Positions 1,735 to 60,012 of a stretch of 64,000 bases of DNA are shown here, in pieces. The position numbers were made by a program, and so were the translations under genes. Source of the stretch: a phage; the sequence record PZ386980.1. One strand, written 5' to 3'. Under the pieces are notes generated by a model, which saw nothing but the letters and a program-made list of their open reading frames with translations, was not told where the DNA came from and ran no database searches. Position 1 is the first letter of the stretch. Each line of letters opens with the position of its first letter.

Positions 1735-1763
1735 ATAATATCATATCCTGTACCAAAGTAAAC
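1735..1763 (-). promoter_or_regulatory. T4-type early promoter
   Basis: minus strand GTTTAC-17nt-TATTAT, about 38 nt upstream of ATG 1697. Confidence 0.55.
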
Positions 1764-1765
1764 AA

Positions 1766-2098
1766 TTATTTTACTACTTTCCAGTGCTTCATGTCAAGTT
1801 TACCAACTTTTTTCATCTTCTCAATCAAACGTTCGGCACGTTGGCGAGCTGTAACATAATACCATTCGCCTAATTCATTTTGTTCAATTTTTCCAACGAT
1901 TACTGTATTCAATTCATAAATCCAACCAGTAAAGAAATTATGAACTTGAATTGTAAAGGTGAAATCTGTTCCCATACCTTCTGTTGTTTCTACTTCAATA
2001 ATATCACCTTCAACTGCCATTAAGAACCACATAGTTTCATCATATTTACCATTGAAGCATTTAGTCTTAACTGCAGCGTTCAGATTAATCGTTTTCAT
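1766..2098 (-). CDS. hypothetical protein (110 aa)
   Basis: track ORF; AAGGAG RBS (rev of 2105-2110) and early promoter 2126-2155 upstream. Confidence 0.55.
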   Translation of the reverse strand: MKTINLNAAVKTKCFNGKYDETMWFLMAVEGDIIEVETTEGMGTDFTFTIQVHNFFTGWIYELNTVIVGKIEQNELGEWYYVTARQRAERLIEKMKKVGKLDMKHWKVVK

Positions 2099-2125
2099 TT
2101 TATTCTCCTTTGTTTGTGTAAGATA

Positions 2126-2155
2126 ATACTATCACAAAGGAACCATATTGTAAAC
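2126..2155 (-). promoter_or_regulatory. T4-type early promoter
   Basis: minus strand GTTTACA-17nt-TAGTAT; directly downstream of terminator 2175-2203; 28 nt to ATG 2098. Confidence 0.6.
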
Positions 2156-2174
2156 AACTTTGTGTAATCTTTGG

Positions 2175-2203
2175 AAAATAAAAAAGGACTCCCGAAGGAG
2201 TCC
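2175..2203 (-). terminator. rho-independent terminator
   Basis: minus strand GGACUCC-UUCG-GGAGUCC followed by U-run; 6 nt after stop of ORF 2209..2385. Confidence 0.7.
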
Positions 2204-2208
2204 TCAAC

Positions 2209-2385
2209 TTATGCTTTCTGCTTACCAAAACGAGAAGCATCATCTCGAAGAACCGCACGTGCTCGGCGCATGATCTTCTCAACAGTTTGATTGATACGAG
2301 AGTTCGACCCACGCTTGTAGCCAGCGCGTTTAGAATCACCAACTTTCTTTTCAACTGCTTTCTTTGCTTTAGCTTGTTTTGCCAT
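2209..2385 (-). CDS. small lysine/arginine-rich protein (58 aa)
   Basis: track ORF 2209..2427 trimmed to ATG at 2385 (MAKQAKAKKAVEKK..); terminator hairpin immediately downstream at 2175-2203. Confidence 0.45.
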   Translation of the reverse strand: MAKQAKAKKAVEKKVGDSKRAGYKRGSNSRINQTVEKIMRRARAVLRDDASRFGKQKA

Positions 2386-2628
2386 TATAAATTCTCTTTT
2401 AAATGAAAATGCAGGACTTATTGGCATTGCCTGCGCAAGCCCTCAAGGGGAACATAGGTTTTGGATATTTAACGACAGGATAACCATAAACCCGTCATCA
2501 TTCACATTCAAGAGGTACACCATAAAACTGCCGGGGTCTTAAAACTATAATGATTCGCAAATCATTAATCAGACAGTTCGATGGCTCCTCGATTTTAGCT
2601 CACACTAAGGCAGTGAATCTCCAATAAA

Positions 2629-2877
2629 TTACTTCAGTGTTACCACAAAGTGACGAACTGCTTTTCGTGCAGCAGAAGCCAGAGGCTTAGCATACTTAAG
2701 TTCATCTTTTTCCTGAAGCTCAGCAGCTAATGCAGTTTGAGCAGGATTCAGATGTTTGAAATAACGCAGGATTTCAAGAGCTTCGGCTTCAACATCAATA
2801 GATGCGCCATAGTTTTCGTGACCATTATTCCATGCGTTTCGTTGCAGTTCAAGAGCGTGTTGTAATTGTTTAATCAT
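2629..2877 (-). CDS. rIII: RIII lysis-inhibition accessory protein
   Basis: 82 aa; MIKQLQHALELQRNAWNNGHENYG.. matches my recollection of T4 RIII; precedes gene 31 as in T4. Confidence 0.85.
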   Translation of the reverse strand: MIKQLQHALELQRNAWNNGHENYGASIDVEAEALEILRYFKHLNPAQTALAAELQEKDELKYAKPLASAARKAVRHFVVTLK

Positions 2878-3016
2878 TTAAAAATTCTCGTTAGAGATTA
2901 AAACTCGGTAGTCACGTTCTTCTGAATTTCATCTTCTTTCGACAGATCTCTCAGTTGTAGACTACCACATAGAATTGTTCGGTTAACTTATTATTCCGAC
3001 ACCCAATTCATATTAT

Positions 3017-3024
3017 TATTTATA
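3017..3024 (-). promoter_or_regulatory. late promoter motif (possible rIII late promoter)
   Basis: exact TATAAATA on minus strand in the 31-rIII intergenic region, about 140 nt upstream of rIII ATG. Confidence 0.4.
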
Positions 3025-3360: not shown

Positions 3361-3416
3361 CGTTTTTCCTTTTTGTTAACAGATGAATTAATAATAACAA
3401 ATAATTCTTAAAGCAT

Positions 3417-5114: not shown

Positions 5115-5143
5115 TTTGTTTTCCTCATTTGTTTGGTAGAGCC

Positions 5144-5173
5144 ATAATATCACAACTCTACCGTAAAGTAAAC
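5144..5173 (-). promoter_or_regulatory. T4-type early promoter
   Basis: minus strand GTTTAC-18nt-TATTAT; 30 nt to ATG 5114. Confidence 0.55.
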
Positions 5174-5175
5174 TA

Positions 5176-8418: not shown

Positions 8419-8446
8419 AAAGTCCTCATGTTATGTCAGTAAGACT

Positions 8447-8476
8447 ACTATAACACAACATGAGGGACTTGTAAAC
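8447..8476 (-). promoter_or_regulatory. T4-type early promoter upstream of alc
   Basis: minus strand GTTTACA-17nt-TATAGT; 29 nt to alc ATG 8418. Confidence 0.6.
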
Positions 8477-16336: not shown

Positions 16337-16428
16337 TATATTTTCCTCAAATTCATTTAAATCAAGACTATGCAATTTTTAAAGCATTGCATAATAGAAT
16401 TCATCATTCATAAACTCAAATACAAAAA

Positions 16429-16788
16429 TTATATTATCTCCCATCGAAAAGGGTCAGGAGCATATCCGATAGAGTTAATCATTTTAACTAAAGTTACCAT
16501 TCCTTTGTTAACTGCTTGTGCGATTTCATCAAAAACTTCATCGCTATCATCATAAAGGTCATTAAAAAGTTCTAACACGTTCTTCTGAACTTTTAATTTA
16601 TGACCAACAATCTCGCCTACAGTAAATTCGTTTCCGCCGATTCCAGTGTAAAACGTAATTACACCAGTTAACAGACTTTCGCGAGAATCTAGGTCATGTG
16701 ATAAATTAATATAAGCCATCCCGGGTGCAGTTTTAAGTTGGCAACGAATTCTTACTTGGGTAATTCCGGTTACATGAATGTCGGACAT
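16429..16788 (-). CDS. hypothetical protein (119 aa)
   Basis: track ORF 16429..16953 trimmed to ATG 16788 (MSDIHVTG..) with GAGGAA RBS; removes overlap with upstream gene. Confidence 0.5.
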   Translation of the reverse strand: MSDIHVTGITQVRIRCQLKTAPGMAYINLSHDLDSRESLLTGVITFYTGIGGNEFTVGEIVGHKLKVQKNVLELFNDLYDDSDEVFDEIAQAVNKGMVTLVKMINSIGYAPDPFRWEII

Positions 16789-16798: not shown

Positions 16799-17038
16799 TC
16801 ACGCTTTCTTAGCGACTTTCCAGTCAGCTTTAAATTGGTCAACGTCAGAGTGATGAATCCAGAAACCAGATGAGCTACCATCTTCATAAAGAGGACAACC
16901 ATCACACTCATCTTCCCATCCCATATCACGTAAAAGATGTTCAGCTTTTTCAATGAGTTCAGAATCTTTACCGATGATATTAAAATACCATTTACCTCTA
17001 ACTTCTGAATCTTTGATGCTCTGGCGTTGTAATCTCAT
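16799..17038 (-). CDS. hypothetical protein (79 aa)
   Basis: track ORF trimmed to ATG 17038 with GAGGAG RBS; early promoter 17065-17094 just upstream. Confidence 0.5.
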   Translation of the reverse strand: MRLQRQSIKDSEVRGKWYFNIIGKDSELIEKAEHLLRDMGWEDECDGCPLYEDGSSSGFWIHHSDVDQFKADWKVAKKA

Positions 17039-17064
17039 TTTATTCTCCTCAAGTTGATAGGGTA

Positions 17065-17094
17065 ATAGTATCACACTACTACCCTGTTGTAAAC
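17065..17094 (-). promoter_or_regulatory. T4-type early promoter
   Basis: minus strand GTTTACA-acagggtagtagtgtga-TACTAT; 27 nt to ATG 17038. Confidence 0.6.
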
Positions 17095-17096
17095 AA

Positions 17097-17357
17097 TTAT
17101 TTTTGAATTTTATCGAGCCACTTACCAAGCTTAATCATTTCTTTAGTAGCCTTTTCCATACTTCTGAACTTAACCAATAGAGGATAGGTATCGACACCCA
17201 TAACTAAACTGGTTACAAGACTGTGTTCACCCACAAGCCATAACGAATACGTTTGAATATCGAGTCCGTAATTTCTGTCTTTATGGACCCGTACACCCAT
17301 CACTTCAAATTTCTCACTAGCTTTTTCTACCGCATCCAGGAAATCATCTTTAGTCAT
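17097..17357 (-). CDS. hypothetical protein (86 aa)
   Basis: track ORF trimmed to ATG 17357, 1 nt after upstream stop; start uncertain (alternative 17399). Confidence 0.4.
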   Translation of the reverse strand: MTKDDFLDAVEKASEKFEVMGVRVHKDRNYGLDIQTYSLWLVGEHSLVTSLVMGVDTYPLLVKFRSMEKATKEMIKLGKWLDKIQK

Positions 17358-17358
17358 A

Positions 17359-17745
17359 TTAGGCCTTAAAAGTTTTTCGCAAAAGTTCAATGATTTCATC
17401 TACATTGTTTTCGTCAACAATGCAGTGAATTTTTGTTACGCCAGAAACTATACCTTCATTAGCGGATTGAGGCTTTTCTAAAGTTACCTCAGTAAAGTAT
17501 TTGAATTCTTCAGAGTAAATCTCAAAATACGTCTCAAGTGGGCCACCCGCCATGTATTCAGTACCATCTTCCATAGTTACACGTACCACACATTCACCAG
17601 CACAATCATCACTTTCCATTTCATCTACAACAAAACTAGGTCCGTGCTTCTCTATTAAATTTAGCATCATTACATTGCAACGGCACTCGTTAGCAAAGTC
17701 ATTTTTAAATAAAGGGTTAATGATATAAGTTTTTCCAACTTCCAC
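17359..17745 (-). CDS. hypothetical protein (128 aa)
   Basis: track ORF; apparent GTG start with GAGGAA RBS 6 nt upstream. Confidence 0.5.
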   Translation of the reverse strand: MEVGKTYIINPLFKNDFANECRCNVMMLNLIEKHGPSFVVDEMESDDCAGECVVRVTMEDGTEYMAGGPLETYFEIYSEEFKYFTEVTLEKPQSANEGIVSGVTKIHCIVDENNVDEIIELLRKTFKA

Positions 17746-17791
17746 TTTGATTTCCTCATTTTAACGGGGCTATCAAATAGCCCCTTGATAA

Positions 17792-18022
17792 TTATTGTTC
17801 AATCAGTCCCATGTAAAATTCTGCGTCTTCAGAATCCATGCCATCGCAATATTCATTAGCCATAAAGCGGGTAAGGTCTTCAAGAGGACCTTCAATGACA
17901 ATAGAAAAATTGCAATAATTGGGATCATCATGAATACTTGTGATACTAAGTTCAGGATAACGATTACGAATAATCTCTTCAATATATTCAAAATCAACGA
18001 TGTCAATATCAACTTTAGCCAT
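17792..18022 (-). CDS. hypothetical acidic protein (76 aa)
   Basis: track ORF trimmed to ATG 18022 with AAGAGG RBS; early promoter 18066-18095 upstream. Confidence 0.5.
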
Positions 18023-18065
18023 ATTATTTTCCTCTTTGATCATCAGCAGTATTGCCGATAGTTGT

Positions 18066-18095
18066 ATAGTACCATGGAAGGACAAGGATGTAAAC
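18066..18095 (-). promoter_or_regulatory. T4-type early promoter with A/T-rich UP region
   Basis: minus strand GTTTACA-tccttgtccttccatgg-TACTAT; sits just downstream of the gene 32 terminator. Confidence 0.6.
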
Positions 18096-18114
18096 AGTTT
18101 TGTGAAAAAATTTT

Positions 18115-18145
18115 TGAAATAAAAAAGGGGACCTCTAGGGTCCCC
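18115..18145 (-). terminator. rho-independent terminator after gene 32
   Basis: minus strand GGGGACC-cuaga-GGUCCCC followed by UUUUUU; 24 nt after gene 32 stop. Confidence 0.7.
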
Positions 18146-18168
18146 AATTAATTAGTAATTATAATCTA

Positions 18169-19077
18169 TTAAAGGTCATTCAAAAGGTCATCCAGGTCCG
18201 TGTCATCAGCACTAGATGAACTACCAGAGCTTGAGCTCATAAAATCATCTTCAGTTTTTGTATTGAAGTCATCAACATTGAATGCATCCAAATCATCAGC
18301 AACTTTATCAGCTTTCTTAGCAGCAGTTGCAGCGGCACCGCCCATCACAGCAGTTCCCATAACTTGACCGAATTTAGTATTCAGTTCTTCAAACGATTTG
18401 AATTTATCTTTAGAAGTCATTTCAGAAAGGTCAACCATTTGTTCGAACAGTTCTTTCTGGAAAGATTCATCGTCAATGTTTGGAATCGCAGATTGATTCA
18501 GGAATTTAGATTCGTCGTAGTTACTAAAACCAGAAACTTGTTTAACTTTCAGTACAAAGTTAGCACCTTCCCACGGACAAGTTACATCAACCGGAGTTTC
18601 ACCCATTTCAACATCAACTGCAATCATTGCATTGATTTTATCCCAGATTTTCTTACCGAAACGGTATTTAAATACTTTACCTTCATTTTCTGGAGCAGCT
18701 GGGTCTTTTACTACAAGAATGTTAGCCCAGTAAGAAGTTTTACGTTTAACAAGACCGTACTCTTTATTGTCAGTGTTGTATAAATCATTTTTACTGATGT
18801 ACTGACATACTGGGCAAGAATCGTAATCACCGTGGGTAGATGAACAGTTTTCAATATACCATTTACCATTTTTCTTGAAACCGTGATTTACAAGAATTGC
18901 GAATGGTGCTTGTTCATCATTTTTAGACGGAAGAAAACGAATTACTGCTTGACCGTTACCCGCATTGTCGAGTTTCAGTTTCCACTCGCCTTTATCTTCA
19001 GAAGAAAAACCACCTTTATTTCCAGCCAGTTTAGCCATTTGTGCAGCGAGTTCAGCAGTAGATTTACGTTTAAACAT
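18169..19077 (-). CDS. 32: gp32 single-stranded DNA-binding protein
   Basis: 302 aa; [37 protein letters not shown].. and acidic Ser/Asp C-terminal tail; matches recalled T4 gp32. Confidence 0.95.
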
Positions 19078-19160
19078 TTTTATTTCCTTTTTAATTTAAT
19101 TAACAGTTGGTGCTATGACGATGTATGACCTCATAGCTGGTCAGTGAGATAATTATAATT

Positions 19161-19168
19161 TATTTATA
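19161..19168 (-). promoter_or_regulatory. late promoter motif upstream of gene 32
   Basis: exact TATAAATA on minus strand about 85 nt upstream of gene 32 ATG; adjacent TGCTT MotA-like core at 19171-19180. Confidence 0.45.
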
Positions 19169-19176
19169 ATAAGCAA

Positions 19177-19830
19177 TTAATACTTACAAGATTTCACAGT
19201 TTCAATAAAAACTTTTTTAGCTTCCTGTGAATCGATATTTAAAATTTTTCTATAAGCTTTTAACTTTATAGAATAATTGTTCCAAACTAAATTATCAGTT
19301 TGTTCATCATGTTTATCAATTATATTTAAAAACGAATCAAGCAAGATAAACGTCTCAAACGAAATTATGTTCGATTGCAGAAGTTTAAAAATATAACTTG
19401 ATTGAACTTTTGGATTATATTCAAAAATTTCTTTAAAAGCAGAAACTTCAACTTTTTTACTAAAATAATAAATGTTGCGAATATCTTCTTCAAACTTAAA
19501 TTTAATTTGCTTTAAGCGTCCGATATATTCACGATAAAACACAAGTGCATCAGCGTCAGAGATGTCACCAATCCAAGCATCTTGGTTAGCAACCAAATTA
19601 CTTATAAAGATTAAAGCAAGTTCCTTTAATTTATATTTTTCTGATAACTTCTGAAAAAAATACTTATCCCTTCGCTTTTGATAAGCGGCATCAGACACCC
19701 GCATGCACCAATTATACTTAATTACATCATACTTTCCATTCATATGTTGTTTTATCATTAAGTATAATTTATAAACTGATTTACCATCAATGTATCTTTC
19801 ACCACCAGCAGGCATGCGGAGTTTAATCAT
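19177..19830 (-). CDS. 59: gp59 helicase loader
   Basis: 217 aa; matches recalled T4 gp59 (MIKLRMPAGGERYIDGKSVYKLYLMIKQHMNGKYD..). Confidence 0.9.
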   Translation of the reverse strand: MIKLRMPAGGERYIDGKSVYKLYLMIKQHMNGKYDVIKYNWCMRVSDAAYQKRRDKYFFQKLSEKYKLKELALIFISNLVANQDAWIGDISDADALVFYREYIGRLKQIKFKFEEDIRNIYYFSKKVEVSAFKEIFEYNPKVQSSYIFKLLQSNIISFETFILLDSFLNIIDKHDEQTDNLVWNNYSIKLKAYRKILNIDSQEAKKVFIETVKSCKY

Positions 19831-20165
19831 AGCAGAAAATCTAATGTATTAGTTTTTTCACAACGAACAACAGAAGGACGTAAAAGATTTTCGTCAATAG
19901 CTTCTGACTGAATTTTTTCAATTATACCCGAAGGAATAAATTTAGCAAATTGAGTTTCAGGAATAGAATTTTCTTCCAAGAATGCTGTCGTAGCTTCAAG
20001 ATAACTCATTCCAAACTCTTCTACCATTTTTTCAATAATAAATCCATTTTCTTGGCGGTCAAGAAGCTTTGCAATTTCATCCTTTTCTTTCTTAATTGAA
20101 AGTTCTTTTTCTGAAAGCCCGGCCTCATCGACCGGGCGAATATCATTTAGAGAAAACTGTGTCAT
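19827..20165 (-). CDS. 33: gp33 late-transcription co-activator
   Basis: track ORF trimmed to ATG 20165 (MTQFSLNDIRPVDEAG..), 112 aa as recalled for T4 gp33. Confidence 0.88.
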   Translation of the reverse strand: MTQFSLNDIRPVDEAGLSEKELSIKKEKDEIAKLLDRQENGFIIEKMVEEFGMSYLEATTAFLEENSIPETQFAKFIPSGIIEKIQSEAIDENLLRPSVVRCEKTNTLDFLL

Positions 20166-20412
20166 AAAGTTCAACTACCTCTTCAGTTTCAGCTTCAAAC
20201 ACATCACGGTTATCTTTATGATATAGAGCCAAAAGACGATTAAACATCTTGCCATCAACACCAAGTTCATCTTTGGCACGAATTCGAATATCTTTAATTA
20301 ATTCATTATAACCGGAAATTTTCAGTTTATGATCAGATGCTTCTTTAATAAATTTAGCCAAGTCTTCGCCGTGGATAGCTTCATCAAATTCAACCATTTC
20401 TTTTTTAGCCAT
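20143..20412 (-). CDS. dsbA: DsbA double-stranded DNA-binding protein (late transcription)
   Basis: 89 aa; MAKKEMVEFDEAIHGEDLAKFIKEASDHKLK.. matches recalled T4 DsbA. Confidence 0.85.
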   Translation of the reverse strand: MAKKEMVEFDEAIHGEDLAKFIKEASDHKLKISGYNELIKDIRIRAKDELGVDGKMFNRLLALYHKDNRDVFEAETEEVVELYDTVFSK

Positions 20413-20420
20413 TATTCACC

Positions 20421-21338: not shown

Positions 21339-21367
21339 ATGAACCTCGTTCAATTAGTGAGATTTCT

Positions 21368-21397
21368 ATTATATACCATCCAAATCTTAAAGTAAAC
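21368..21397 (-). promoter_or_regulatory. T4-type early promoter upstream of rnh
   Basis: minus strand GTTTAC-18nt-TATAAT; 30 nt to rnh ATG; back-to-back with gene 34 late promoter. Confidence 0.6.
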
Positions 21398-21400
21398 AAG

Positions 21401-21408
21401 TATAAATA
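21401..21408 (+). promoter_or_regulatory. late promoter of gene 34
   Basis: exact TATAAATA 35 nt upstream of gene 34 ATG. Confidence 0.7.
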
Positions 21409-21442
21409 CTTATTATTGAAAACACAATAGGAGCCCGGGAGA

Positions 21443-32267: not shown

Positions 32268-32420
32268 TCAATTAGTTGACTTTGTTATAATATCATCAGA
32301 CGCTTGATTTGTAAACTGGTCTGTGTTATTTTCTTCAAAAATTTTTTCTACGAATTCCTTGAACGACTCACGTTCCTGAGCTACATTATGCTCGATTACT
32401 TTTTCAAGATTATGACTCAT
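32268..32420 (-). CDS. small acidic protein (50 aa), not in ORF track
   Basis: ATG overlaps arn stop (ATGA); MSHNLEKVIEHNVAQERESFKEFVEKIFEENNTDQFTNQASDDIITKSTN; fills the arn-asiA gap. Confidence 0.4.
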   Translation of the reverse strand: MSHNLEKVIEHNVAQERESFKEFVEKIFEENNTDQFTNQASDDIITKSTN

Positions 32421-34710: not shown

Positions 34711-34751
34711 TTTCTAATCTCCGTAATTCTGTATCAGTAGTTGATAGTTGT

Positions 34752-34781
34752 ATAATACCACAGTATGCTTTGGTTGTAAAC
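34752..34781 (-). promoter_or_regulatory. T4-type early promoter upstream of motA
   Basis: minus strand GTTTACA-accaaagcatactgtgg-TATTAT; UP region nearly identical to the one at 18096-18126. Confidence 0.65.
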
Positions 34782-34803
34782 CGGTTTGTGAAAAAAATTT
34801 TTG

Positions 34804-34834
34804 AAATAAAAAAAGGGAGAGCCGAGGCTCTCCC
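34804..34834 (-). terminator. rho-independent terminator after gene 52 / small ORF
   Basis: minus strand GGGAGAGCC..GGCUCUCCC followed by UUUUUUUAUUU. Confidence 0.7.
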
Positions 34835-34839
34835 TAAAA

Positions 34840-37848: not shown

Positions 37849-37876
37849 TTTCTGTTCCTCCGTAGTTGATAGGGTA

Positions 37877-37906
37877 ATAGTACCACGGAAGAACAGTCTT
37901 GTAAAC
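37877..37906 (-). promoter_or_regulatory. T4-type early promoter
   Basis: minus strand GTTTACA-agactgttcttccgtgg-TACTAT; 29 nt to ATG 37848. Confidence 0.6.
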
Positions 37907-38389: not shown

Positions 38390-38419
38390 ATAGTACCACG
38401 GTCCTTGTGGTATGTAAAC
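38390..38419 (-). promoter_or_regulatory. T4-type early promoter
   Basis: minus strand GTTTACA-taccacaaggaccgtgg-TACTAT; 35 nt to ATG 38355. Confidence 0.6.
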
Positions 38420-38993: not shown

Positions 38994-39076
38994 TTAAACT
39001 TTCCTTTATGTCGGAATCACTGATATTCATATAAATCATAATTTCTCTTAAAACAAAAGGGCCGAAGCCCCTTATT

Positions 39077-39271
39077 TTATTTGAATTGTGCAATTCTTTT
39101 CTCTAAACATTCAGCATAAGATTTCATTGAGATAAACTGCGAAAGTAGCAGTTCTTGCTCAACTGCGCTAACTGTTAGAAACTTTGCGCTTTCTAAAAAT
39201 TTACTCAGTGCATTAATTTTGAGCATTAATTGATCGTATTCTTCTTTTACTCGTGCTTGATAACCTAACAT
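39077..39271 (-). CDS. hypothetical coiled-coil protein (64 aa)
   Basis: track ORF flanked by CUUCGG-type hairpins. Confidence 0.5.
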   Translation of the reverse strand: MLGYQARVKEEYDQLMLKINALSKFLESAKFLTVSAVEQELLLSQFISMKSYAECLEKRIAQFK

Positions 39272-39299
39272 AATTTTCCTTAGTTAAGGGCCGAAGCCC

Positions 39300-42666: not shown

Positions 42667-42696
42667 ATTATACCACATCCTTGTGGTAAAGTAAAC
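42667..42696 (-). promoter_or_regulatory. T4-type early promoter upstream of rIIA.1-like ORF and rIIA
   Basis: minus strand GTTTAC-18nt-TATAAT; overlaps 3' end of gene 39. Confidence 0.6.
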
Positions 42697-46328: not shown

Positions 46329-46353
46329 TTTATTCTCCAAGTTATTTTCTGTA

Positions 46354-46394
46354 TCAGTAGTTGATATTGATATAGTACCATAATCAACTACTGA
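46354..46394. repeat. 12-bp perfect inverted repeat flanking a promoter-like -10 element
   Basis: tcagtagttgat (46354-46365) .. 17 nt including atagta .. atcaactactga (46383-46394). Confidence 0.6.
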
Positions 46395-46435
46395 TGTATA
46401 TAGTTTTATGAAAAAATTTTAAACTTTATGCAAAT

Positions 46436-46855
46436 TTATGCTAAAGCTGCTTCGCACCATTTTTTAATTTGGAATTCAGGAACTACCATGAACTGGCCTG
46501 CAAAAACAATATTGTAGAGCTTGACACCATCTTCTACCCAACGGTCCGAAATAAAACCAGCGACTTGATTCGTTGTCCATGGAGTTCCATCTGTTGCCGC
46601 CGCAATTGTGAATTTATGGTCTTTTACAACTAAAACTGAAGAACAAAGTTTCCATTTAAATGCGCTTTCTTCTGGCTCAATGAACTGACTTGAGACATAG
46701 CCAATGTTACCATCAGCGTCACGAACTTTAACCTCGTTACGACCAAAAACTGGATCACTTACAGAAAGAACTTCAACCAGCTTTCCTGCAACTTTAGAAC
46801 GAGAAGCAACGGATACATATACGTAATCACCAGTAGAGAGATTTACAATATTCAT
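46436..46855 (-). CDS. paralog family member 1 (139 aa)
   Basis: shares VSxASRSKxAGxLVEV, FKWxLC and (F/W)(I/V)(S/T)D(R/Q)W(V/L)EDG..L(Y/L)N(I/V)V..G.F motifs with the next two ORFs. Confidence 0.55.
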   Translation of the reverse strand: MNIVNLSTGDYVYVSVASRSKVAGKLVEVLSVSDPVFGRNEVKVRDADGNIGYVSSQFIEPEESAFKWKLCSSVLVVKDHKFTIAAATDGTPWTTNQVAGFISDRWVEDGVKLYNIVFAGQFMVVPEFQIKKWCEAALA

Positions 46856-46864: not shown

Positions 46865-47338
46865 TTAAGCTTTACGAGGAGAAGCATAACGAGTGATTTC
46901 AGATTCTTCAACAACCCGGAAGTCACCTAAGAATACGATATTGTAGAGCTTTTCACCATCTTCAACCCATTGGTCTGTGATGAAGCCACACATCCTATCA
47001 GTTTTACTTGGACCAGCGAAATCATCAATATAATCGAATTCTTCATCAGTTACAAATTCAACGCCTTTACACAACGCCCATTTAAATTGTGCATTAGACT
47101 CAGTGGATTCAACTTCTTCAACAGAAGTAAAATGAGAGCTAACACGAGTTTCCAGAAATTTAGGACTTACGTAAGCGTACTGAGTTTCAGTTTTTCCAGA
47201 ACTAGGAATGATTCGAACTTTAACTTCTTTAACACGACCAGTACCATTAGTACGAAGTCCTACCACTTCAACTAGACGACCTGCAGCTTTAGAACGAGAT
47301 GCAGACGATACACGCTTAATTTCACCGATAGTAATCAT
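46865..47338 (-). CDS. paralog family member 2 (157 aa)
   Basis: see family motifs above. Confidence 0.55.
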   Translation of the reverse strand: MITIGEIKRVSSASRSKAAGRLVEVVGLRTNGTGRVKEVKVRIIPSSGKTETQYAYVSPKFLETRVSSHFTSVEEVESTESNAQFKWALCKGVEFVTDEEFDYIDDFAGPSKTDRMCGFITDQWVEDGEKLYNIVFLGDFRVVEESEITRYASPRKA

Positions 47339-47410
47339 AATTTTTCTCTCTTTGTTGTTAAGATTTATTCTCCATGAGAGCCATTATAACAGGCTCTCTA
47401 TAAAGTAAAC

Positions 47411-47920
47411 TTAATTAAGGATATTAATTACTGCACTGCGTGGAACTACACTAAAATCACCTGCATGAACAACGTTCAGAAGTTCAACACCATCTTCAAG
47501 CCACTGGTCAGTTACCCAACCACTTACTGGACCAGCAAATGGTCGACGAATTGAAACAGCTTTACACAACAAGTCAGTAGGCTCGATAGGCTTAACCAGA
47601 GTACCGTACATACAAGCAATGTCCATATCAAAGTGGAGACCAGTGCTAACAGGTGCTTCTTCAATCAACAATTCGAAATCTTGTTCTGTAATATAGACCG
47701 TAGATATTGTACCATATAAGTTTTTAATTCTTAAGAATGATACAGATGAAGCTGTGGCAGTTGATGCAAAAATAGGACCAGCATTTACAATAGTGAAACC
47801 TTTACCTTGGGTAACACCAATAAGCTCGCAAAACTTACTATAAGAACCATTATTTGCTTCAAACCAGTTTACTTGCTTTTCGTCTTTCAGGATGTAAGTA
47901 GCTGTAGTACTGATATTCAT
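47411..47920 (-). CDS. paralog family member 3 (169 aa, C-terminal motif only)
   Basis: C-terminus WVTDQWLEDGVELLNVVHAGDFSVVP matches the family motif. Confidence 0.55.
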   Translation of the reverse strand: MNISTTATYILKDEKQVNWFEANNGSYSKFCELIGVTQGKGFTIVNAGPIFASTATASSVSFLRIKNLYGTISTVYITEQDFELLIEEAPVSTGLHFDMDIACMYGTLVKPIEPTDLLCKAVSIRRPFAGPVSGWVTDQWLEDGVELLNVVHAGDFSVVPRSAVINILN

Positions 47921-48436: not shown

Positions 48437-48463
48437 TTTATTATCCTCAGTAGCTATGGTGTT

Positions 48464-48493
48464 ATAATACCACAACTAACCGAGGAAGTAAAT
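48464..48493 (-). promoter_or_regulatory. T4-type early promoter (weaker -35)
   Basis: minus strand ATTTAC-18nt-TATTAT; 28 nt to ATG 48436. Confidence 0.5.
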
Positions 48494-52327: not shown

Positions 52328-52357
52328 ACTATAACATTTTTACCTTAGCTTGTAAAC
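52328..52357 (-). promoter_or_regulatory. T4-type early promoter upstream of srd-position ORF
   Basis: minus strand GTTTACA-agctaaggtaaaaatgt-TATAGT. Confidence 0.6.
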
Positions 52358-53017: not shown

Positions 53018-53637
53018 TCAACTACCTCAATATCATAAACTTTAAATGTTCCAAATGAATCGTGTAATTTTTCTTTTGAAATAGAATTTATTTTATACTT
53101 TCCAATTGGAATCATCCATTCTTGTTCATGTACAATCATCATTAAGTTATCAGTTCTTTCTGAATCTAACCCATCAGTATCTTCATACGTGTACTTAAAC
53201 TCAGTATTAGGAGAAGAAAGTATAATATCGCTGATATGGTCAGAATAATTAAAAGCTTTATCAGTTTTTAAACGAAGTATTGTTTCAGTGAAATATTCAG
53301 CATAAGAAAAAGAACACGCTGTATGCAAACTAGTAGTAAATGAATCTACCCTGTTCGTTGAAAACACTTCTCCAACCTGTAAATCTTTAATAAGTTCTTT
53401 TGTCGATTTTGATATACCACGATATAATTGATAAGGCGATTTAGTTAAATGCTTTTTAATGATTTTATTCAACTGTCTGTGAAGAGCTTCATTCTTTTTG
53501 GCTTCCATACATTGCCAAAGAACAGACTGCTCAAAGTCAGTAAATTTTTCACAGACTTTTTTATACATATCATATTGAAAATCAACGCTTTCAGCTTTTA
53601 TAGATAACTGTTCAACATCTGCAGGATTAATAATCAT
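53014..53637 (-). CDS. modB: ModB ADP-ribosyltransferase
   Basis: 207 aa; adjacent paralog of modA; early promoter 53664-53693 upstream. Confidence 0.75.
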   Translation of the reverse strand: MIINPADVEQLSIKAESVDFQYDMYKKVCEKFTDFEQSVLWQCMEAKKNEALHRQLNKIIKKHLTKSPYQLYRGISKSTKELIKDLQVGEVFSTNRVDSFTTSLHTACSFSYAEYFTETILRLKTDKAFNYSDHISDIILSSPNTEFKYTYEDTDGLDSERTDNLMMIVHEQEWMIPIGKYKINSISKEKLHDSFGTFKVYDIEVVE

Positions 53638-53663
53638 GATAGCCTCCGTATACTTCAGAAGCT

Positions 53664-53693
53664 ATCATATCATCGTTAGAAAGGAAAGTAAAC
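53664..53693 (-). promoter_or_regulatory. T4-type early promoter upstream of modB
   Basis: minus strand GTTTAC-18nt-TATGAT; 27 nt to modB ATG. Confidence 0.55.
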
Positions 53694-55783: not shown

Positions 55784-55813
55784 ATTATACCACACTCATT
55801 TTGACATGTAAAC
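55784..55813 (-). promoter_or_regulatory. T4-type early promoter
   Basis: minus strand GTTTACA-tgtcaaaatgagtgtgg-TATAAT; 27 nt to ATG 55757. Confidence 0.6.
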
Positions 55814-55821: not shown

Positions 55822-55846
55822 GAAAAAAGGAATCCCGAAGGATTCC
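55822..55846 (-). terminator. rho-independent terminator after soc
   Basis: minus strand GGAAUCC-UUCG-GGAUUCC followed by UUUUUU; 10 nt after soc stop. Confidence 0.7.
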
Positions 55847-55855
55847 TTAAATTAT

Positions 55856-56700: not shown

Positions 56701-56734
56701 TATTTTTCCTTTCAATTCATGGGTTAGTAGATTA

Positions 56735-56758
56735 ATTATACAATAAATATATAAAGCA
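56735..56758 (-). promoter_or_regulatory. MotA-dependent middle promoter candidate upstream of gene 56
   Basis: minus strand MotA box aTTGCTTTAt then 11 nt then TATAAT; about 35 nt upstream of gene 56 ATG. Confidence 0.5.
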
Positions 56759-56771
56759 ATAAGGAGGACAT

Positions 56772-57997: not shown

Positions 57998-57999
57998 TT

Positions 58000-58164
58000 T
58001 TACTCTTCTTTTTCTTTAGATTCCTCTTTTTTCTTTTTAGGAATCTGTTCAGGACCTTTATTTACTACAGCACCTGATGTTGTTCCAGTAGAGATATTTT
58101 CAGGATTACCACCTGAATCTCCAGCTACCATATCTTCTTTAATAAATTCTTTATATGTTTTCAT
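58000..58164 (-). CDS. hypothetical Lys/Glu-rich protein (54 aa), not in ORF track
   Basis: MKTYKEFIKEDMVAGDSGGNPENISTGTTSGAVVNKGPEQIPKKKKEESKEKEE; fills the gap between gene 61 and the next ORF. Confidence 0.4.
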   Translation of the reverse strand: MKTYKEFIKEDMVAGDSGGNPENISTGTTSGAVVNKGPEQIPKKKKEESKEKEE

Positions 58165-58210
58165 ATTAACCTCTATTCATAAAAGCATTAAAAATTTGGT
58201 CATCAATAGA
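58162..58210. repeat. 49-bp direct repeat, copy 1 (gene junction module)
   Basis: catattaacctctattcataaaagcattaaaaatttggtcatcaataga; 3 mismatches to copy at 58520-58568. Confidence 0.75.
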
Positions 58211-58522
58211 TGGAATAGCAACCTTTTCGGCATCATTTAGCAAATCATTAATTTCATCAGATAACATAACACATGTGCCTTTATTTCCTGTAATTGTTAC
58301 TGCACAATTACGAACGTTTTCTTTATCAAATTTTAGGTTAATATTTTCGTAGTGAAAATCCTTTAATGCCGAATATATCTTTAAAATGAAATTGTCTTTT
58401 ACTACAATAAACCCAACCTCACTATTAAAACATGGTTCATGGAAACTGTAATAAACCTTTTCATCTATAAAATCGTATGAAATTTTTTCCATTTTTAAAT
58501 ATGAAAATTCAGAACTATACAT
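58166..58522 (-). CDS. hypothetical protein (118 aa), shared C-terminal module
   Basis: track ORF; C-terminus SIDDQIFNAFMNRG shared with next ORF. Confidence 0.5.
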   Translation of the reverse strand: MYSSEFSYLKMEKISYDFIDEKVYYSFHEPCFNSEVGFIVVKDNFILKIYSALKDFHYENINLKFDKENVRNCAVTITGNKGTCVMLSDEINDLLNDAEKVAIPSIDDQIFNAFMNRG

Positions 58523-58568
58523 ATTAACCTTTATTCATAAAAGCATTAAAAATTTGATCGTCAATAGA
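58520..58568. repeat. 49-bp direct repeat, copy 2 (gene junction module)
   Basis: catattaacctttattcataaaagcattaaaaatttgatcgtcaataga. Confidence 0.75.
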
Positions 58569-59165
58569 AACATTTACTTTAGACTGTTCTTCAAACGGTA
58601 ATTCATATCCACATATTACAATTTTGTGATCGATACCAAAATACACAGAAGCAATATGATTAATATTATTTTCAGTGAAATCTAAATCAACATCAATATC
58701 TTTTTGACTAACGCTCAAAGGATAATTAATACGAATAATTCGATTATCTTTAACAAAGATTCCACCGACATACTCTGTGTTGCGTTTAAAGTTTACACGT
58801 TTCCTAAATGAAAAATATTCAGGTTCTTTATGAGCCCGACTCATAGGACACAATGAGTAGCTAGAATAAGAGATGTCAAATCCTACACCTTCAATATGAG
58901 CCAACGTGTCATGATTAAACCAATTATAATCATATGCCAAATCCATTATATTGTAATATGTGAAAGGCACCGGATTAACATCATGTGTTGTACCTTTAAA
59001 ATCTGCCCAGGCAACGATTTCGTTATCTTTAACAATTACAAAAATTGTGCCAATAAGATATCCACGGTTATTTTCATCAGGCGTTATATTATAACATTGC
59101 GCATCAGGAAATTTACCGTATTTAAACGGTGGATTTTTGTGCATATAATAAATCATATTATTCAC
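58524..59165 (-). CDS. hypothetical protein (213 aa), internally duplicated, shared C-terminal module
   Basis: track ORF; two VKDN-containing segments (FVIVKDNEIV, GGIFVKDNRII) and C-terminus SIDDQIFNAFMNKG. Confidence 0.5.
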   Translation of the reverse strand: MNNMIYYMHKNPPFKYGKFPDAQCYNITPDENNRGYLIGTIFVIVKDNEIVAWADFKGTTHDVNPVPFTYYNIMDLAYDYNWFNHDTLAHIEGVGFDISYSSYSLCPMSRAHKEPEYFSFRKRVNFKRNTEYVGGIFVKDNRIIRINYPLSVSQKDIDVDLDFTENNINHIASVYFGIDHKIVICGYELPFEEQSKVNVSIDDQIFNAFMNKG

Positions 59166-59451
59166 CTGTGATTTCGGTTACGATATTTTTGTTATTAAAG
59201 TTTTTATCGCAATACAGAACATAATTATACTGCATTACACCACCAGACTTAAGTTGTTTTTGCACTTCAGCTTTCATTTTAGGACGATCGCGCTCAACAA
59301 TATTCATAATATCCGCTTCAATTTGAGTTTCAACTTCAGTCTGATCTGCAGTCATAGACCATTCACACAAGTCTTTATCATATCCTGCCATAGCAGGCTG
59401 AGCAGCACAAGAAGCCAAAGTAAAAATTGTAGCAAAAATAAATTTTTTCAT
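59158..59451 (-). CDS. sp: Spackle periplasmic protein
   Basis: 97 aa with signal peptide; MKKFIFATIFTLASCAAQPAMAGYDKDLCEWSM.. matches recalled T4 Sp. Confidence 0.85.
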   Translation of the reverse strand: MKKFIFATIFTLASCAAQPAMAGYDKDLCEWSMTADQTEVETQIEADIMNIVERDRPKMKAEVQKQLKSGGVMQYNYVLYCDKNFNNKNIVTEITGE

Positions 59452-59511
59452 GATAATCTCCTCAGTAGTTTATGTTTATATAGTATCTCAATTTCCAACA
59501 AAAGTAAACAG

Positions 59512-59811
59512 CTATTTTAAAACTTCTGCGTAATCACATGTTACAAACTGTTTCTCTAGCTTAACGATTTTACGAAAATACCTTTTATACTGACGAATCT
59601 GCCTCTTCGTAGGACGTACAGCAAACTTAATAAATTCCACTCGACCAAATGGAGGACTTTCTTCTGCTGGAATATCTAACACCAATTCCCATGTATCCGC
59701 AATAAGTGCTTTGAATTGAGTATTTTTCCTGACGTTATACGGAGTAGGTTTAAATAAAACAATATGCATATTATCCTCGGCAATCCACTTCGCACACTTT
59801 CTTGTCATCAA
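59512..59811 (-). CDS. hypothetical protein (99 aa), position of T4 61.4
   Basis: track ORF; 5' end overlaps dmd 3' end, true start may be internal. Confidence 0.45.
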   Translation of the reverse strand: MMTRKCAKWIAEDNMHIVLFKPTPYNVRKNTQFKALIADTWELVLDIPAEESPPFGRVEFIKFAVRPTKRQIRQYKRYFRKIVKLEKQFVTCDYAEVLK

Positions 59812-59953
59812 TGAAAGCTTTAACTAATGCTTTATTAACTTCAGCATATTGAGTAGTAGCCCATTGAACGTCATCTTTCATCATTGTGATTTCTTTAGTA
59901 AACATGCTTTCATTCTTAAACCACCCCATAAAAACTACCTTTACCAATTCCAT
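59771..59953 (-). CDS. dmd: Dmd antitoxin-like inhibitor of host RNase toxins
   Basis: 60 aa; MELVKVVFMGWFKNESMFTKEITMMKDDVQW.. matches recalled T4 Dmd; early promoter 59983-60012 upstream. Confidence 0.8.
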   Translation of the reverse strand: MELVKVVFMGWFKNESMFTKEITMMKDDVQWATTQYAEVNKALVKAFIDDKKVCEVDCRG

Positions 59954-59982
59954 AACAATCTCCTCATTTAACCAACAAGACT

Positions 59983-60012
59983 ACTATACCATAGTCTTGT
60001 CAGCTTGTAAAC
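59983..60012 (-). promoter_or_regulatory. T4-type early promoter upstream of dmd
   Basis: minus strand GTTTACA-agctgacaagactatgg-TATAGT; -10 sits inside a 9-bp inverted repeat 59975-60000. Confidence 0.6.

Follow-up and report, generated by a model that had tools for sequence, protein, structure and literature searches.

Promoter-like sites along the minus strand

T4-like phages take over the host RNA polymerase at infection via strong early promoters. The window analyzed here, a stretch of 64,000 nucleotides from sequence record PZ386980.1, corresponds at 100% identity to coliphage RB51/RB68, which is closely related to T4 and has a genome A+T content of 64-68%, and it wraps across the ends of the sequence record. 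Along its minus strand lie 20 sites with a GTTTAC-type -35 and a TAnnAT-like -10 element (Table 1), all of which precede a deposited CDS start, an ATG with a Shine-Dalgarno sequence. Among the genes behind these sites are classical early genes of T4 (motA, asiA, alc, modB, the ndd region, and dmd).

Table 1. Predicted early promoters and associated features in the window, with orthologous T4 positions where given.
Feature	Position	Strand	Details
Gene 30.7 early promoter (ATG 1697)	1735..1763	-	GTTTAC-17-TATTAT; T4 129918-129890
30.7 hairpin across -10 and start site	promoter 1735..1763	-	GGTACAGG/CCTGTACC; z = -4.76
30.8 early promoter (ATG 2098)	2126..2155	-	GTTTAC-18-TAGTAT; T4 130310-130281
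30.8 spacer paired with Shine-Dalgarno region	promoter 2126..2155	-	TCCTTTGT with ACAAAGGA; z = -2.13
Intrinsic-terminator-like hairpin and T-run, adjoining 30.8 promoter upstream	2184..2205	-	
cd.2 early promoter (ATG 5114)	5144..5173	-	T4 133331-133302
cd.2 hairpin across -10	promoter 5144..5173	-	GGTAGAG/CTCTACC; z = -4.52
alc early promoter (ATG 8415)	8447..8476	-	GTTTAC-18-TATAGT
alc entire spacer paired with leader incl. Shine-Dalgarno	promoter 8447..8476	-	MFE -24.8 kcal/mol; z = -6.08
frd.1 early promoter (ATG 17038)	17065..17094	-	hairpin AGGGTA/TACCCT; z = -2.37
frd.3 early promoter (ATG 18022)	18066..18095	-	GTTTAC-18-TACTAT; TGG before -10; T4 146875-146846
Terminator-like hairpin and T-run after gene 32, adjoining frd.3 promoter upstream	18127..18145	-	
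rnh early promoter (ATG 21338)	21368..21397	-	GTTTAC-18-TATAAT; T4 150763-150734
Gene 34 late-promoter box (ATG 21443)	21401..21408	+	TATAAATA; late consensus per PMC1524935
asiA early promoter (ATG 32255), within asiA.1 coding sequence	32287..32316	-	T4 161211-161182
motA early promoter (ATG 34710)	34752..34781	-	TGG before -10; T4 163673-163644
Terminator-like hairpin and T-run, adjoining motA promoter upstream	34814..34835	-	
ndd.4 early promoter (ATG 37848)	37877..37906	-	T4 166807-166778
ndd.4 spacer paired with leader incl. Shine-Dalgarno	promoter 37877..37906	-	15 bp; MFE -22.7 kcal/mol; z = -4.92
RB51ncORF272c early promoter (ATG 38355)	38390..38419	-	T4 167086-167057
rIIA.1 early promoter (ATG 42641)	42667..42696	-	T4 2458-2429
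RB51ncORF009c early promoter (ATG 46328)	46372..46401	-	ATATAC-18-TACTAT; matrix scan only, 29.6 bits
RB51ncORF009c perfect hairpin across -10	promoter 46372..46401	-	13 bp; z = -4.89
motB early promoter (ATG 47338)	47383..47410	-	spacer 16; hairpin GAGAGCC/GGCTCTC, z = -3.10
motB.2 early promoter (ATG 48436)	48464..48493	-	ATTTAC-18-TATTAT; T4 8218-8189
motB.2 spacer paired with leader incl. Shine-Dalgarno	promoter 48464..48493	-	MFE -23.7 kcal/mol; z = -7.08
srd early promoter (ATG 52292)	52328..52357	-	GTTTAC-18-TATAGT; T4 11851-11822
modB early promoter (ATG 53637)	53664..53693	-	exact motif match
modB hairpin, -10 and first transcribed bases paired with Shine-Dalgarno and AUG	53635-53669	-	z = -3.98
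mrh.2 early promoter (ATG 55757)	55784..55813	-	GTTTAC-18-TATAAT; TGG before -10; T4 15288-15259
Terminator-like hairpin and T-run after soc, adjoining mrh.2 promoter upstream	55827..55848	-	
sp early promoter (ATG 59451)	59480..59509	-	T4 20109-20080
dmd early promoter (ATG 59953)	59983..60012	-	GTTTAC-18-TATAGT; T4 20612-20583
dmd hairpin across -10	promoter 59983..60012	-	15 bp; z = -3.98

The motif GTTTAC-N16-19-TANNAT was directly observed 16 times in the window, compared to 1.30 ± 1.07 times in shuffled sequences, where none of 100 shuffles reached 16 or gave even 5 matches. Fifteen of the 16 exact matches lie on the minus strand, i.e., the early-gene strand, and the lone plus-strand match (22347-22377, spacer 19) lies inside gene 34. 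Permitting one mismatch gained four sites (8447-8476, 48464-48493, 52328-52357, and 59983-60012), and a two-block position-weight matrix, run over the whole window on both strands, further gained 46372-46401. The matrix clearly set apart the 20 minus-strand sites, at 15.0-41.9 bits with the frd.3 promoter scoring highest, from the next minus-strand match (9.2 bits) and the top plus-strand match (2.6 bits), while upon leave-one-out scoring the sites at 42696 and 47410 reached only 4-5 bits. The minus-strand GTTTAC(A)-spacer-TAnnAT family proposed in an earlier sequence-only reading is thus real, although the 16 minus-strand sites counted there become 15 by exact match and 20 by matrix. Since a generic TTGACA/TATAAT scan yielded no enrichment (70 versus 78.7; 49 versus 62.2), the signal is specific to the T4-type consensus. 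A TGn precedes the -10 at 18 of the 20 sites and is TGG at nine, in agreement with the frequent TGG reported before. The -35 is altered at two sites (ATTTAC at 48493, ATATAC at 46401) and a third has a gap of 16 nt between GTTTAC and the -10; these three may be weak promoters.

Gene starts and neighboring elements

The downstream ATG and Shine-Dalgarno sequence (including GGAG for motA) are present at all 20 sites as claimed, at a -10 to ATG distance of 25-44 nt rather than 26-44 nt. The sequence-only reading had also held that ten promoters lie inside the longest ORF and thereby validate revised start codons. Under an ATG/GTG/TTG rule, however, the longest ORF reaches the promoter in six cases (cd.2, frd.1, frd.3, ndd.4, ncORF272c, and motB.2), and a number of about ten is obtained only if stop-to-stop frames and partial overlap are allowed. 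For these six genes the argument is supportive but no independent proof, because a promoter may sit within a genuine coding region: That of asiA lies in asiA.1, and the stop codons of gene 39 (60plus39) and gene 41 are overlapped by the -35 elements of rIIA.1 and dmd, respectively. Nothing is revised with respect to the public annotation, since all seven quoted starts are the deposited RB51 CDS starts (7/7). For one of them, 16336, the promoter argument fails, as the family is not represented upstream, where only a generic TTGAGT-17-TATTAT (16419-16391) occurs.

Hairpins with a T-run were indeed found just before the 30.8 and frd.3 promoters, and likewise before those of motA and mrh.2. Equally sound was the description of an early minus-strand promoter back to back with the gene 34 late promoter: The late box TATAAATA sits 3 nt from GTAAAC (21392-21397), the rnh -35 as read on the opposite strand.

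T4 orthology and promoter class

For 19 of the 20 sites, T4 was observed to have a GTTTAC-type orthologous promoter at the same place, and the twentieth has a partial T4 match only (~6609-6576). From the T4 orthologue of the cd.2 promoter, a start site at 133295 is expected, and the GenBank record of T4 calls this promoter "Pe133295"; the T4 orthologue of the motB.2 promoter appears to occupy the position of the published P8.1 (named in PMC2988021). The RB51 consensus agrees with that published for the early promoters of T4 (GTTTAC at -36 to -31, an A-rich UP region, TGn, and -10; PMC1524935; PMC2988021) and with the PST/T4 PeSL consensus TTTACW-N17-TAYWAT (PMC4122927).

In so AT-rich a genome TAnnAT is frequent, and the plus-strand match within gene 34 looks like a chance match, yet the idea that the whole set consists of chance hits to a short degenerate pattern has next to no probability: It is refuted by the enrichment (16 versus 1.3, with no shuffle reaching 5), the 15 of 16 matches on the early-gene strand, the matrix separation, the position of every site no more than 44 nt from an annotated start, and the conservation in T4. 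That the sites would instead be MotA/AsiA-dependent middle promoters is very improbable. Such promoters likewise have a sigma-70 -10, about half with TGn (PMC2988021), and several occur in the same regions (e.g., T4 Pndd.3, PrIIA, Pcd, and P31), but a GTTTAC-type -35 is found at every site and a MotA box (TGCTT centered at -30) at none, and the orthologous T4 start sites (e.g., 133295, 163637, 166771, 8182, and 20576) match none of the 58 mapped T4 middle starts (PMC2988021, Table 1). On the basis of the motif statistics, the strand and position, and the one-to-one T4 orthology, the repeated motif very probably represents T4-type early (sigma-70) promoters from which early transcription units on the minus strand begin.

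Each site would then act as a very strong sigma-70 promoter, composed of an A/T-rich UP-like block, a GTTTAC(A/T) -35, TGn, and a TAnnAT -10, which unmodified Escherichia coli RNA polymerase could recognize right after DNA injection. A minus-strand immediate-early transcript is predicted to start ~7 nt past the -10, with a leader of 18-37 nt that ends in a strong Shine-Dalgarno sequence and ATG, and the preceding intrinsic terminators would insulate four of the promoters from the upstream unit. Promoter activity and timing are deduced from T4 orthology and the consensus.

Similarity among the sites

The sites had been described as near-identical cassettes of a repeat family, which the alignment contradicts: Over positions -66 to +20, pairwise identity averages 45% with a maximum of 68%, and a repeat finder recovered copies that are 60-79% identical to a reference. 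The upstream block said to be identical at 18096-18126 and 34782-34812 is present in both places but differs by one T indel and two mismatches. The family members share a consensus and are not near-identical copies. A subfamily of about six (frd.3, motA, ncORF272c, ndd.4, frd.1, and ncORF009c) has in common both an upstream A/T block and an initial transcribed sequence acaactatcaac, at 60-79% identity.

This subfamily, alike beyond the polymerase contact elements, raises the question of whether a mobile cassette or dispersed repeat gave rise to the sites, whose likeness would then stem from duplication and PeSL-mediated modular shuffling rather than from independent selection for promoter function. 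Among the dispersed direct repeats of the window, the two largest families (D1, 7 × 52 nt; D2, 5 × 74 nt; the ncORF009c site belongs to both) do consist of these cassettes, the frd.1 cassette is an island of RB51/T4 homology with indels at both edges, the ORF body behind the ncORF272c cassette (38390-38419) is replaced in T4, and PMC4122927 describes how T4 and PST differ by exchange of a PeSL at ndd.4/ndd.5. We nevertheless consider this origin rather unlikely. Identity outside the hexamers is 37% on average versus 27% expected at random, which indicates that most members have only the promoter consensus in common; 19 of 20 sites occupy conserved orthologous T4 positions; and the observed association with rearrangements is modest, as only ~3-4 of 18 RB51/T4 breakpoints adjoin a cassette, most others involving introns, homing endonuclease genes, or tandem duplications. 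A repeat origin would, moreover, complement the promoter function, not replace it.

Hairpins across the -10 element

Eleven of the 20 sites have a hairpin across the -10 and start site (folding z-scores of -2.1 to -7.1), which in five (30.8, alc, ndd.4, motB.2, and modB) pairs with the Shine-Dalgarno sequence. Spacers were observed to pair specifically with their cognate leaders (permutation p = 5e-5), and in relatives the pairing is kept while the arm sequences change in a compensatory manner, as for the alc hairpin in 13 of 17 orthologues. The motB hairpin, GAGAGCC/GGCTCTC, becomes GGGACC/GGTCCC at the same place in T4. With their arms flanking the -10 and start site, the eleven hairpins would form only in RNA reading through from upstream, whose translation they could control, and not in the promoter's own transcript.

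It is possible, though somewhat less likely than not, that these hairpins instead act at the DNA level, as cruciforms or hot spots of recombination, or simply attenuate transcription. The PeSL authors showed that such stem-loops block sequencing polymerases and interpret them as sites of recombination and of termination or attenuation (PMC2839356), and about half of those in RB51 (30.7, frd.1, ncORF009c, motB, and dmd) leave the Shine-Dalgarno sequence untouched. None of the -10-spanning hairpins, however, is followed by a T-run, and at the five promoters named above the 3′ arm is the Shine-Dalgarno region and covaries with the spacer. Of 27 strong cases, 19 show better folding for the sense strand than for the antisense, and G.U pairs account for 24 of 345, which points to sense RNA rather than duplex DNA, although the bias is modest.

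Comparison with known systems

T4 early promoters (Pe) number ~40 per genome and are sigma-70 promoters with UP, -35 (GTTTAC), TGn, and -10 elements. The RB51 sites match them in consensus, spacing, TGn, A-rich upstream region, and placement directly 5′ of early genes on the early strand, without substantial difference, and can be regarded as RB51 alleles. The differences are minor: motB.2 has ATTTAC rather than GTTTAC, the motB spacer is 2 nt shorter (16 versus 18 nt) with a different stem, and the flanking ORFs differ at frd.1 and ncORF272c. The promoter family is genuine yet ordinary, its members being known T4 early promoter elements.

Many of the sites also fit the published PeSL cassettes (Arbiol et al. 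2010, PMC2839356; Comeau et al. 2014, PMC4122927), with an AT-rich block, a sigma-70-like promoter, a stem-loop upstream of or overlapping the -10, a Shine-Dalgarno sequence, and an ATG, in some cases at indel boundaries between close relatives. Unlike those cassettes, only 14 of the 20 RB51 sites have a recognizable stem-loop, and the stems are not of the G-tract/C-tract type given there for RB49/phi1. Given how few breakpoints touch a cassette, the RB51 sites do not generally share the role in recombination that has been proposed for PeSLs. Pairing between stem and Shine-Dalgarno sequence is not discussed in the consulted passages of these reports.

For T4 e, soc, 49, and I-TevI, translation-initiation regions are known to be masked in long transcripts but accessible when transcription begins at an internal promoter (PMC3014915). 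The geometry at 30.8, alc, ndd.4, motB.2, and modB is alike, with the 5′ arm upstream of the start site, the 3′ arm formed by the Shine-Dalgarno sequence (plus the AUG for modB), and folding possible only in read-through RNA. In RB51, however, the internal promoter is an early sigma-70 promoter and not a late one with TATAAATA, so by analogy the hairpins would confine translation to the first minutes of infection instead of delaying it to the late stage.

Twenty early promoters on the minus strand

The exact pattern GTTTAC-N16-19-TANNAT matched the window 16 times, where 1.30 ± 1.07 matches were expected and no shuffle gave more than 4, and 15 of the 16 matches lay on the minus strand. The motif family is thus real and far above chance. 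The single plus-strand match (22347-22377) appears to be due to chance: it falls within gene 34, its spacer is 19 nt long, and it lacks a TG. Permitting one mismatch added four convincing minus-strand sites (8447-8476, 48464-48493, 52328-52357, and 59983-60012), the last of which supplies the end coordinate of the range assigned to the family in an earlier, sequence-only reading of this DNA. That reading had also proposed a weight-matrix scan, which we ran with the UP region and −35 as one block, TGn and −10 as a second block, and a variable spacer between them. Twenty minus-strand sites, scoring 15.0-41.9 bits, stood apart from the best remaining scores of 9.2 bits on the minus strand and ≤2.6 at every plus-strand position. 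The twentieth site, at 46372-46401 (−) upstream of RB51ncORF009c, has ATATAC as its −35, so the exact pattern misses it; apart from this degenerate hexamer, it is a member of the best-conserved subfamily, and its nearest cassette is that of motA (74% over 74 nt). A generic TTGACA/TATAAT σ70 scan of the window showed no enrichment over shuffles and did not pick out these sites, and the signal is therefore specific to the T4-type consensus.

Megablast of window 17000-22000 and 40000-64000 returned 100% identity to Enterobacteria phages RB51 (FJ839693) and RB68, two members of the genus Tequatrovirus that are closely related to T4. The window starts at RB51 position 128146, runs to the end of that record and continues from position 1 (join at window 40249/40250), spanning gene 30.2, the tail-fibre genes, rIIB/rIIA, and the region up to gene 42. 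GC skew is negative throughout except in the plus-strand late tail-fibre block at roughly 21.4-32 kb, which fits the minus-strand orientation of the early and middle genes.

Other repeated elements lie in the same DNA. Three copies of a hairpin of the GGGGCC-GAAG-GCCCC type with flanking T-runs (1295-1332, 39044-39081, and 39273-39310) may be bidirectional terminators, since a terminator scan matched one of them on both strands (39057-39073) and the other two on the plus strand. Diverged direct repeats of 42-68 nt (62-72% identity; dispersed repeat families D4 and D6) occur inside the proximal tail-fibre gene 34 at 22844-23794 (+). Direct repeats of 49 nt, 94% identical, flank the insertion of RB32ORF033c, a gp61.2-like ORF that is not in T4 (58162-58210 and 58520-58568), which is the pattern expected for a tandem duplication or for deletion between repeats. 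Finally, a 93-nt stretch recurs at 60-71% identity in ncORF010c, motB, and motB.1 (46467-46559, 46896-46988, and 47430-47522), and these three adjacent genes are therefore paralogues; their region shows the window's greatest divergence from T4 (69-86% identity).

Identity as T4 early promoters

By consensus and orthology, the sites are identified as T4-type early promoters, i.e., as already known elements, in agreement with the sequence-only reading. Blastn of each cassette with 150-nt flanks found a T4 counterpart at 93-99% identity for most of them, and when T4 was scanned, 19 of the 20 proved to have a GTTTAC-type counterpart at the orthologous position; the ncORF009c promoter matched T4 only in part, in the interval from motB to cef. 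The T4 records NC_000866 and AF158101 hold no annotated promoter features, their sole naming note being the wording "the early promoter Pe133295 between cd.2 and cd.3." At the cd.2 orthologue, the T4 −10 ends at 133302 and a start 7 nt downstream falls at 133295, which anchors the promoter class as well as the offset of the start site. For motB.2, the orthologue lies at T4 8218-8189, where the early promoter P8.1 is expected, and we infer that it is this much-studied promoter (named in PMC2988021).

The published T4 early consensus consists of GTTTAC at −36..−31, an A-rich UP region, a GT-rich/TGn segment, and the −10 (PMC1524935), and T4 early promoters have been characterized as UP/−35/TGn/−10 (PMC2988021). 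The RB51 consensus equals it: the −35, the −10 spacing with TGn, an UP-like region, and the expected position and orthology were all found. Initiation is predicted to be carried out by the unmodified host σ70 polymerase right after infection, without phage protein synthesis. The alternative of middle promoters is very unlikely, as a MotA box occurs in none of the sites and no T4 orthologous start coincides with any of the 58 mapped middle-promoter starts. A literature search turned up no RNA-seq transcription start maps for T4 or RB51.

Anatomy of the promoters

The −35 is exactly GTTTAC in 18 of the 20 sites (ATTTAC at 48493 and ATATAC at 46401), and the gap to the −10 is 18 nt in 18 sites and 17 and 16 nt in the remaining two. 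TGn precedes the −10 in 18/20 sites (TGG in 9/20), and the −10 itself reads TAnnAT in 16 sites and TATAGT in 4. The region upstream of the −35 has the consensus "aaaaa..ttt.A.AaA.tt" with an information content above background. This UP-like region is the weakest of the features that mark an early promoter, because the 25 nt upstream of the −35 contain 60-88% A+T against a background that is already about 65%. Contrary to the description of the cassettes as near-identical, their mean pairwise identity is 45% over −66 to +20 (best pair, 68%), and outside the two hexamers it is 37% versus 27% at random. A subfamily formed by the frd.3, motA, ncORF272c, ndd.4, frd.1, and ncORF009c promoters has aaaaattttttcacaaaac upstream and acaactatcaac after the −10 in common.

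Downstream of each of the 20 sites, 25-44 nt from its end, lies a minus-strand ATG with a Shine-Dalgarno sequence, and every one of these ATGs is annotated as a CDS start in the deposited RB51 record. The seven starts that the sequence-only reading offered as revised are identical to those deposited, and of ten promoters said to lie inside the longest ORF, six do so under ATG/GTG/TTG starts (cd.2, frd.1, frd.3, ndd.4, ncORF272c, and motB.2). A promoter had also been placed upstream of start 16336, where we found no family member. At 16337-16460 (minus strand), no T4-type early promoter precedes the inserted genes ncORF236c and ncORF237c, which T4 lacks, and the matches there are only generic σ70-like ones (Table). 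Among the 19 sites other than the ncORF009c promoter, 12 place the −35 G between −1 and +16 nt from the stop codon of the gene upstream, and one places it inside that gene (asiA.1), so that the preceding gene's end and the UP-like block usually overlap. Several promoters had been described as directly following terminator hairpins; the two hairpins named are borne out, and there are four such cases in all. The back-to-back arrangement proposed for an early promoter and the gene 34 late promoter was likewise found, with the late-promoter box TATAAATA 3 nt from the reverse-complemented −35 of the rnh promoter (GTAAAC, 21392-21397). GGAG is the motif at which T4's RegB endoribonuclease cuts early mRNAs, for instance that of motA (PMC3014915, PMC2988021), and it occurs inside the Shine-Dalgarno sequence of 11/20 promoter-proximal genes (e.g., 34716-34725 for motA, 37853-37860 for ndd.4, and 53642-53650 for modB).

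Table. Predicted hairpins spanning the −10 (named by downstream gene), terminator-like hairpins, and promoter matches.
Feature	Window position	Strand	Details
30.7 hairpin	1714-1763	−	z −4.8, MFE −19.4 kcal/mol
30.8 hairpin	2105-2142	−	z −2.1, MFE −12.1 kcal/mol
cd.2 hairpin	5118-5173	−	z −4.5, MFE −16.9 kcal/mol
alc hairpin	8420-8470	−	z −6.1, MFE −24.8 kcal/mol
frd.1 hairpin	17059-17085	−	z −2.4, MFE −15.2 kcal/mol
ndd.4 hairpin	37852-37896	−	z −4.9, MFE −22.7 kcal/mol
ncORF009c hairpin	46353-46395	−	z −4.9, MFE −20.2 kcal/mol; 13-bp perfect, around −10
motB hairpin	47370-47405	−	z −3.1, MFE −17.0 kcal/mol
motB.2 hairpin	48444-48486	−	z −7.1, MFE −23.7 kcal/mol
modB hairpin	53635-53669	−	z −4.0, MFE −18.0 kcal/mol
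dmd hairpin	59970-60005	−	z −4.0, MFE −18.9 kcal/mol
Intrinsic-terminator-like hairpin + T-run before promoter	2205-2184	−	
Intrinsic-terminator-like hairpin + T-run before promoter	18145-18127	−	
Intrinsic-terminator-like hairpin + T-run before promoter	34835-34814	−	
Intrinsic-terminator-like hairpin + T-run before promoter	55848-55827	−	
Late-promoter box TATAAATA	21401-21408	+	35 nt before gene 34 ATG
Generic σ70-like match	16419-16391	−	TTGAGT-17-TATTAT
Generic σ70-like match	16457-16428	−	CTGACC-18-TATAAT

Hairpins across the −10 and the start site

The spacer separating the −35 from the −10 is in many cases complementary to the bases that directly follow the −10 or to the Shine-Dalgarno region. 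Upon folding the span from the −35 to the ATG and scoring it against 200 dinucleotide shuffles, we obtained a hairpin reaching across both the −10 and the predicted start site in 11 of the 20 early promoters (Table), the remaining nine sites being unremarkable. Spacers paired with their own leaders at a mean of −10.4 kcal/mol, versus −6.7 kcal/mol with the leaders of other promoters (permutation p = 5e-5; 19 sites, ncORF009c excluded). Most of the hairpins occur where promoter and upstream gene adjoin: among the same 19 sites, 9 of the 13 that have a gap of ≤16 nt to the upstream stop codon, or that lie inside the upstream gene, carry one. For 30.8, alc, ndd.4, motB.2, and modB, the predicted fold has the Shine-Dalgarno sequence as its 3′ arm (joined by the AUG in modB), and 5-10 of 10 Shine-Dalgarno-zone bases are predicted to pair with an arm upstream of the start site. 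With a start 7 nt past the −10, RNA made from the promoter itself would lack the 5′ arm, and only RNA from upstream would fold.

The comparison of these structures with those of relatives rested on 42 diverse IMG/VR loci around the cd gene (61-100% Cd protein identity); IMG/VR scans with MotB and ModB queries yielded just 6 loci apiece, mainly from close relatives. RNAalifold returned no structure on a MAFFT alignment of the alc promoter regions, because variable loop length misaligns the 3′ arms, and alignment-free tests of cognate versus non-cognate duplexes were used in its place. Among the alc orthologues, the spacer-leader duplex reached −15 kcal/mol or better in 13 of 17 distinct promoters. 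Arm pairs vary (e.g., CTCATGTT/AACATGAG, CCGTTTGGTT/AACCAAACGG, CCATTTGGTT/AACCAAATGG, and CCTCATTTCGTT/AACGAAATGAGG), pairing being kept through compensatory changes in diverse T4-like phages. The same energy was reached by 46% of 50 non-redundant promoter-leader sequences from the cd loci, versus 2.9% of non-cognate pairs. Strong hairpins were rarer in the motA and modB neighbourhoods (12% at ≤ −15 kcal/mol versus 1.6% non-cognate); the −10-spanning hairpin is common, not universal. The structure is clearly under selection. The sense strand folded better than the antisense strand in 19 of 27 strong cases and G·U made up 24 of 345 pairs, which points modestly to RNA over duplex DNA.

Promoter-early stem-loop cassettes and genome rearrangement

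"Promoter-early stem-loop" (PeSL) cassettes were defined in T4-like phages by Arbiol et al. (PMC2839356) and Comeau et al. (PMC4122927) as an AT-rich block, a σ70-like promoter, a stem-loop, a Shine-Dalgarno sequence, and an ATG, where the stem-loop can lie upstream, fall between the boxes, or overlap the −10; they were proposed as mediators of modular shuffling of small ORFs (PMC2839356, PMC4122927). The PeSL consensus of the PST/T4 pair is TTTACW-N17-TAYWAT (PMC4122927). Judged by layout, many of our sites have this published architecture, and the cassettes that had been noted to follow a terminator hairpin are PeSLs. A stem-loop of either kind was found at 14/20 sites, 11 having a −10-spanning hairpin with z ≤ −2 and 4 the upstream terminator type, and 6 sites had none. 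An unbiased repeat finder returned the cassettes as its two largest dispersed families (7 × 52 nt and 5 × 74 nt), with copies at 60-79% identity to the reference.

The textbook PeSL case is the frd.1 cassette, an island of homology between RB51 and T4 (window 17049-17366; T4 146015-146154). Homology runs through the end of frd.2, breaks, resumes exactly at the −35 and continues to 12 nt past the −10, where it breaks a second time before resuming at the frd.1 Shine-Dalgarno sequence. On the RB51 side, ncORF239c is inserted directly upstream of the −35; on the T4 side, an 80-nt insert directly after +12 carries an unannotated 22-codon ORF (MFAPYIMAAVMLVCLYLLIKAC) with its own Shine-Dalgarno sequence. 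The ORF downstream of the 38390-38419 cassette (ncORF272c) is replaced in T4. An association of cassettes with indels or replacements was clear at frd.1 (both edges), ncORF272c, and motB, amounting to only about 3-4 of 18 RB51/T4 breakpoints that touch a cassette, and most others fall at introns, homing endonuclease genes, or tandem duplications. Recombination between PeSL cassettes yielding mini-circles has been assayed by inverse PCR on infected cells (PMC2839356).

Possible role of the hairpins and known counterparts

The promoter set itself is a rediscovery of the T4 early promoter consensus in a close T4 relative and not new biology. It serves as a check on the start codons of short genes and, since the RB51 record lists no promoters, as a useful annotation layer for RB51. 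Only the covarying hairpins across the start site might matter more widely. We put forward, as a tentative idea that we consider rather doubtful, that about half of T4-like early promoters are built inside an RNA hairpin. The 5′ arm would be the −35/−10 spacer, and the 3′ arm would consist either of the bases transcribed first or of the Shine-Dalgarno sequence. RNA initiated at the promoter itself, beginning between the arms, could not fold, while read-through RNA from the upstream gene would fold and hide the ribosome-binding sites of 30.8, alc, ndd.4, motB.2, and modB, and translation of these five genes would be tied to the firing of their own immediate-early promoters. Any GGAG paired in this way would be protected from RegB too.

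In the available portions of the PeSL papers, stem-loops "overlapping the -10 box" are treated as attenuators and recombination sites (PMC2839356, PMC4122927), and a role in translation goes unmentioned in those portions; the older primary T4 literature may differ. A translational role is what we infer for these hairpins. Covariation of the spacer of many early promoters with the leader or the Shine-Dalgarno sequence would mean that promoter sequence outside the polymerase contacts is constrained by RNA structure acting on read-through transcripts, which might account in part for the "additional regions of consensus" described for T4 early promoters and would bear on the translational shut-off of immediate-early genes.

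A review of post-transcriptional control in T4 lists no genes with hidden ribosome-binding sites other than e, soc, 49, I-TevI, and certain homing endonuclease genes, in all of which a late promoter lies inside the structure (PMC3014915). The same sequestration geometry is predicted for 30.8, alc, ndd.4, motB.2, and modB, with covariation in the alc orthologues. Whereas the internal promoter of the e/soc/49/I-TevI type is late (TATAAATA) and gives late-only translation, the RB51 internal promoters are early σ70 promoters. By analogy, the RB51 early-promoter hairpins would work like this family without being members of it, as the mirror image of the late-promoter devices of e, soc, 49, and I-TevI.
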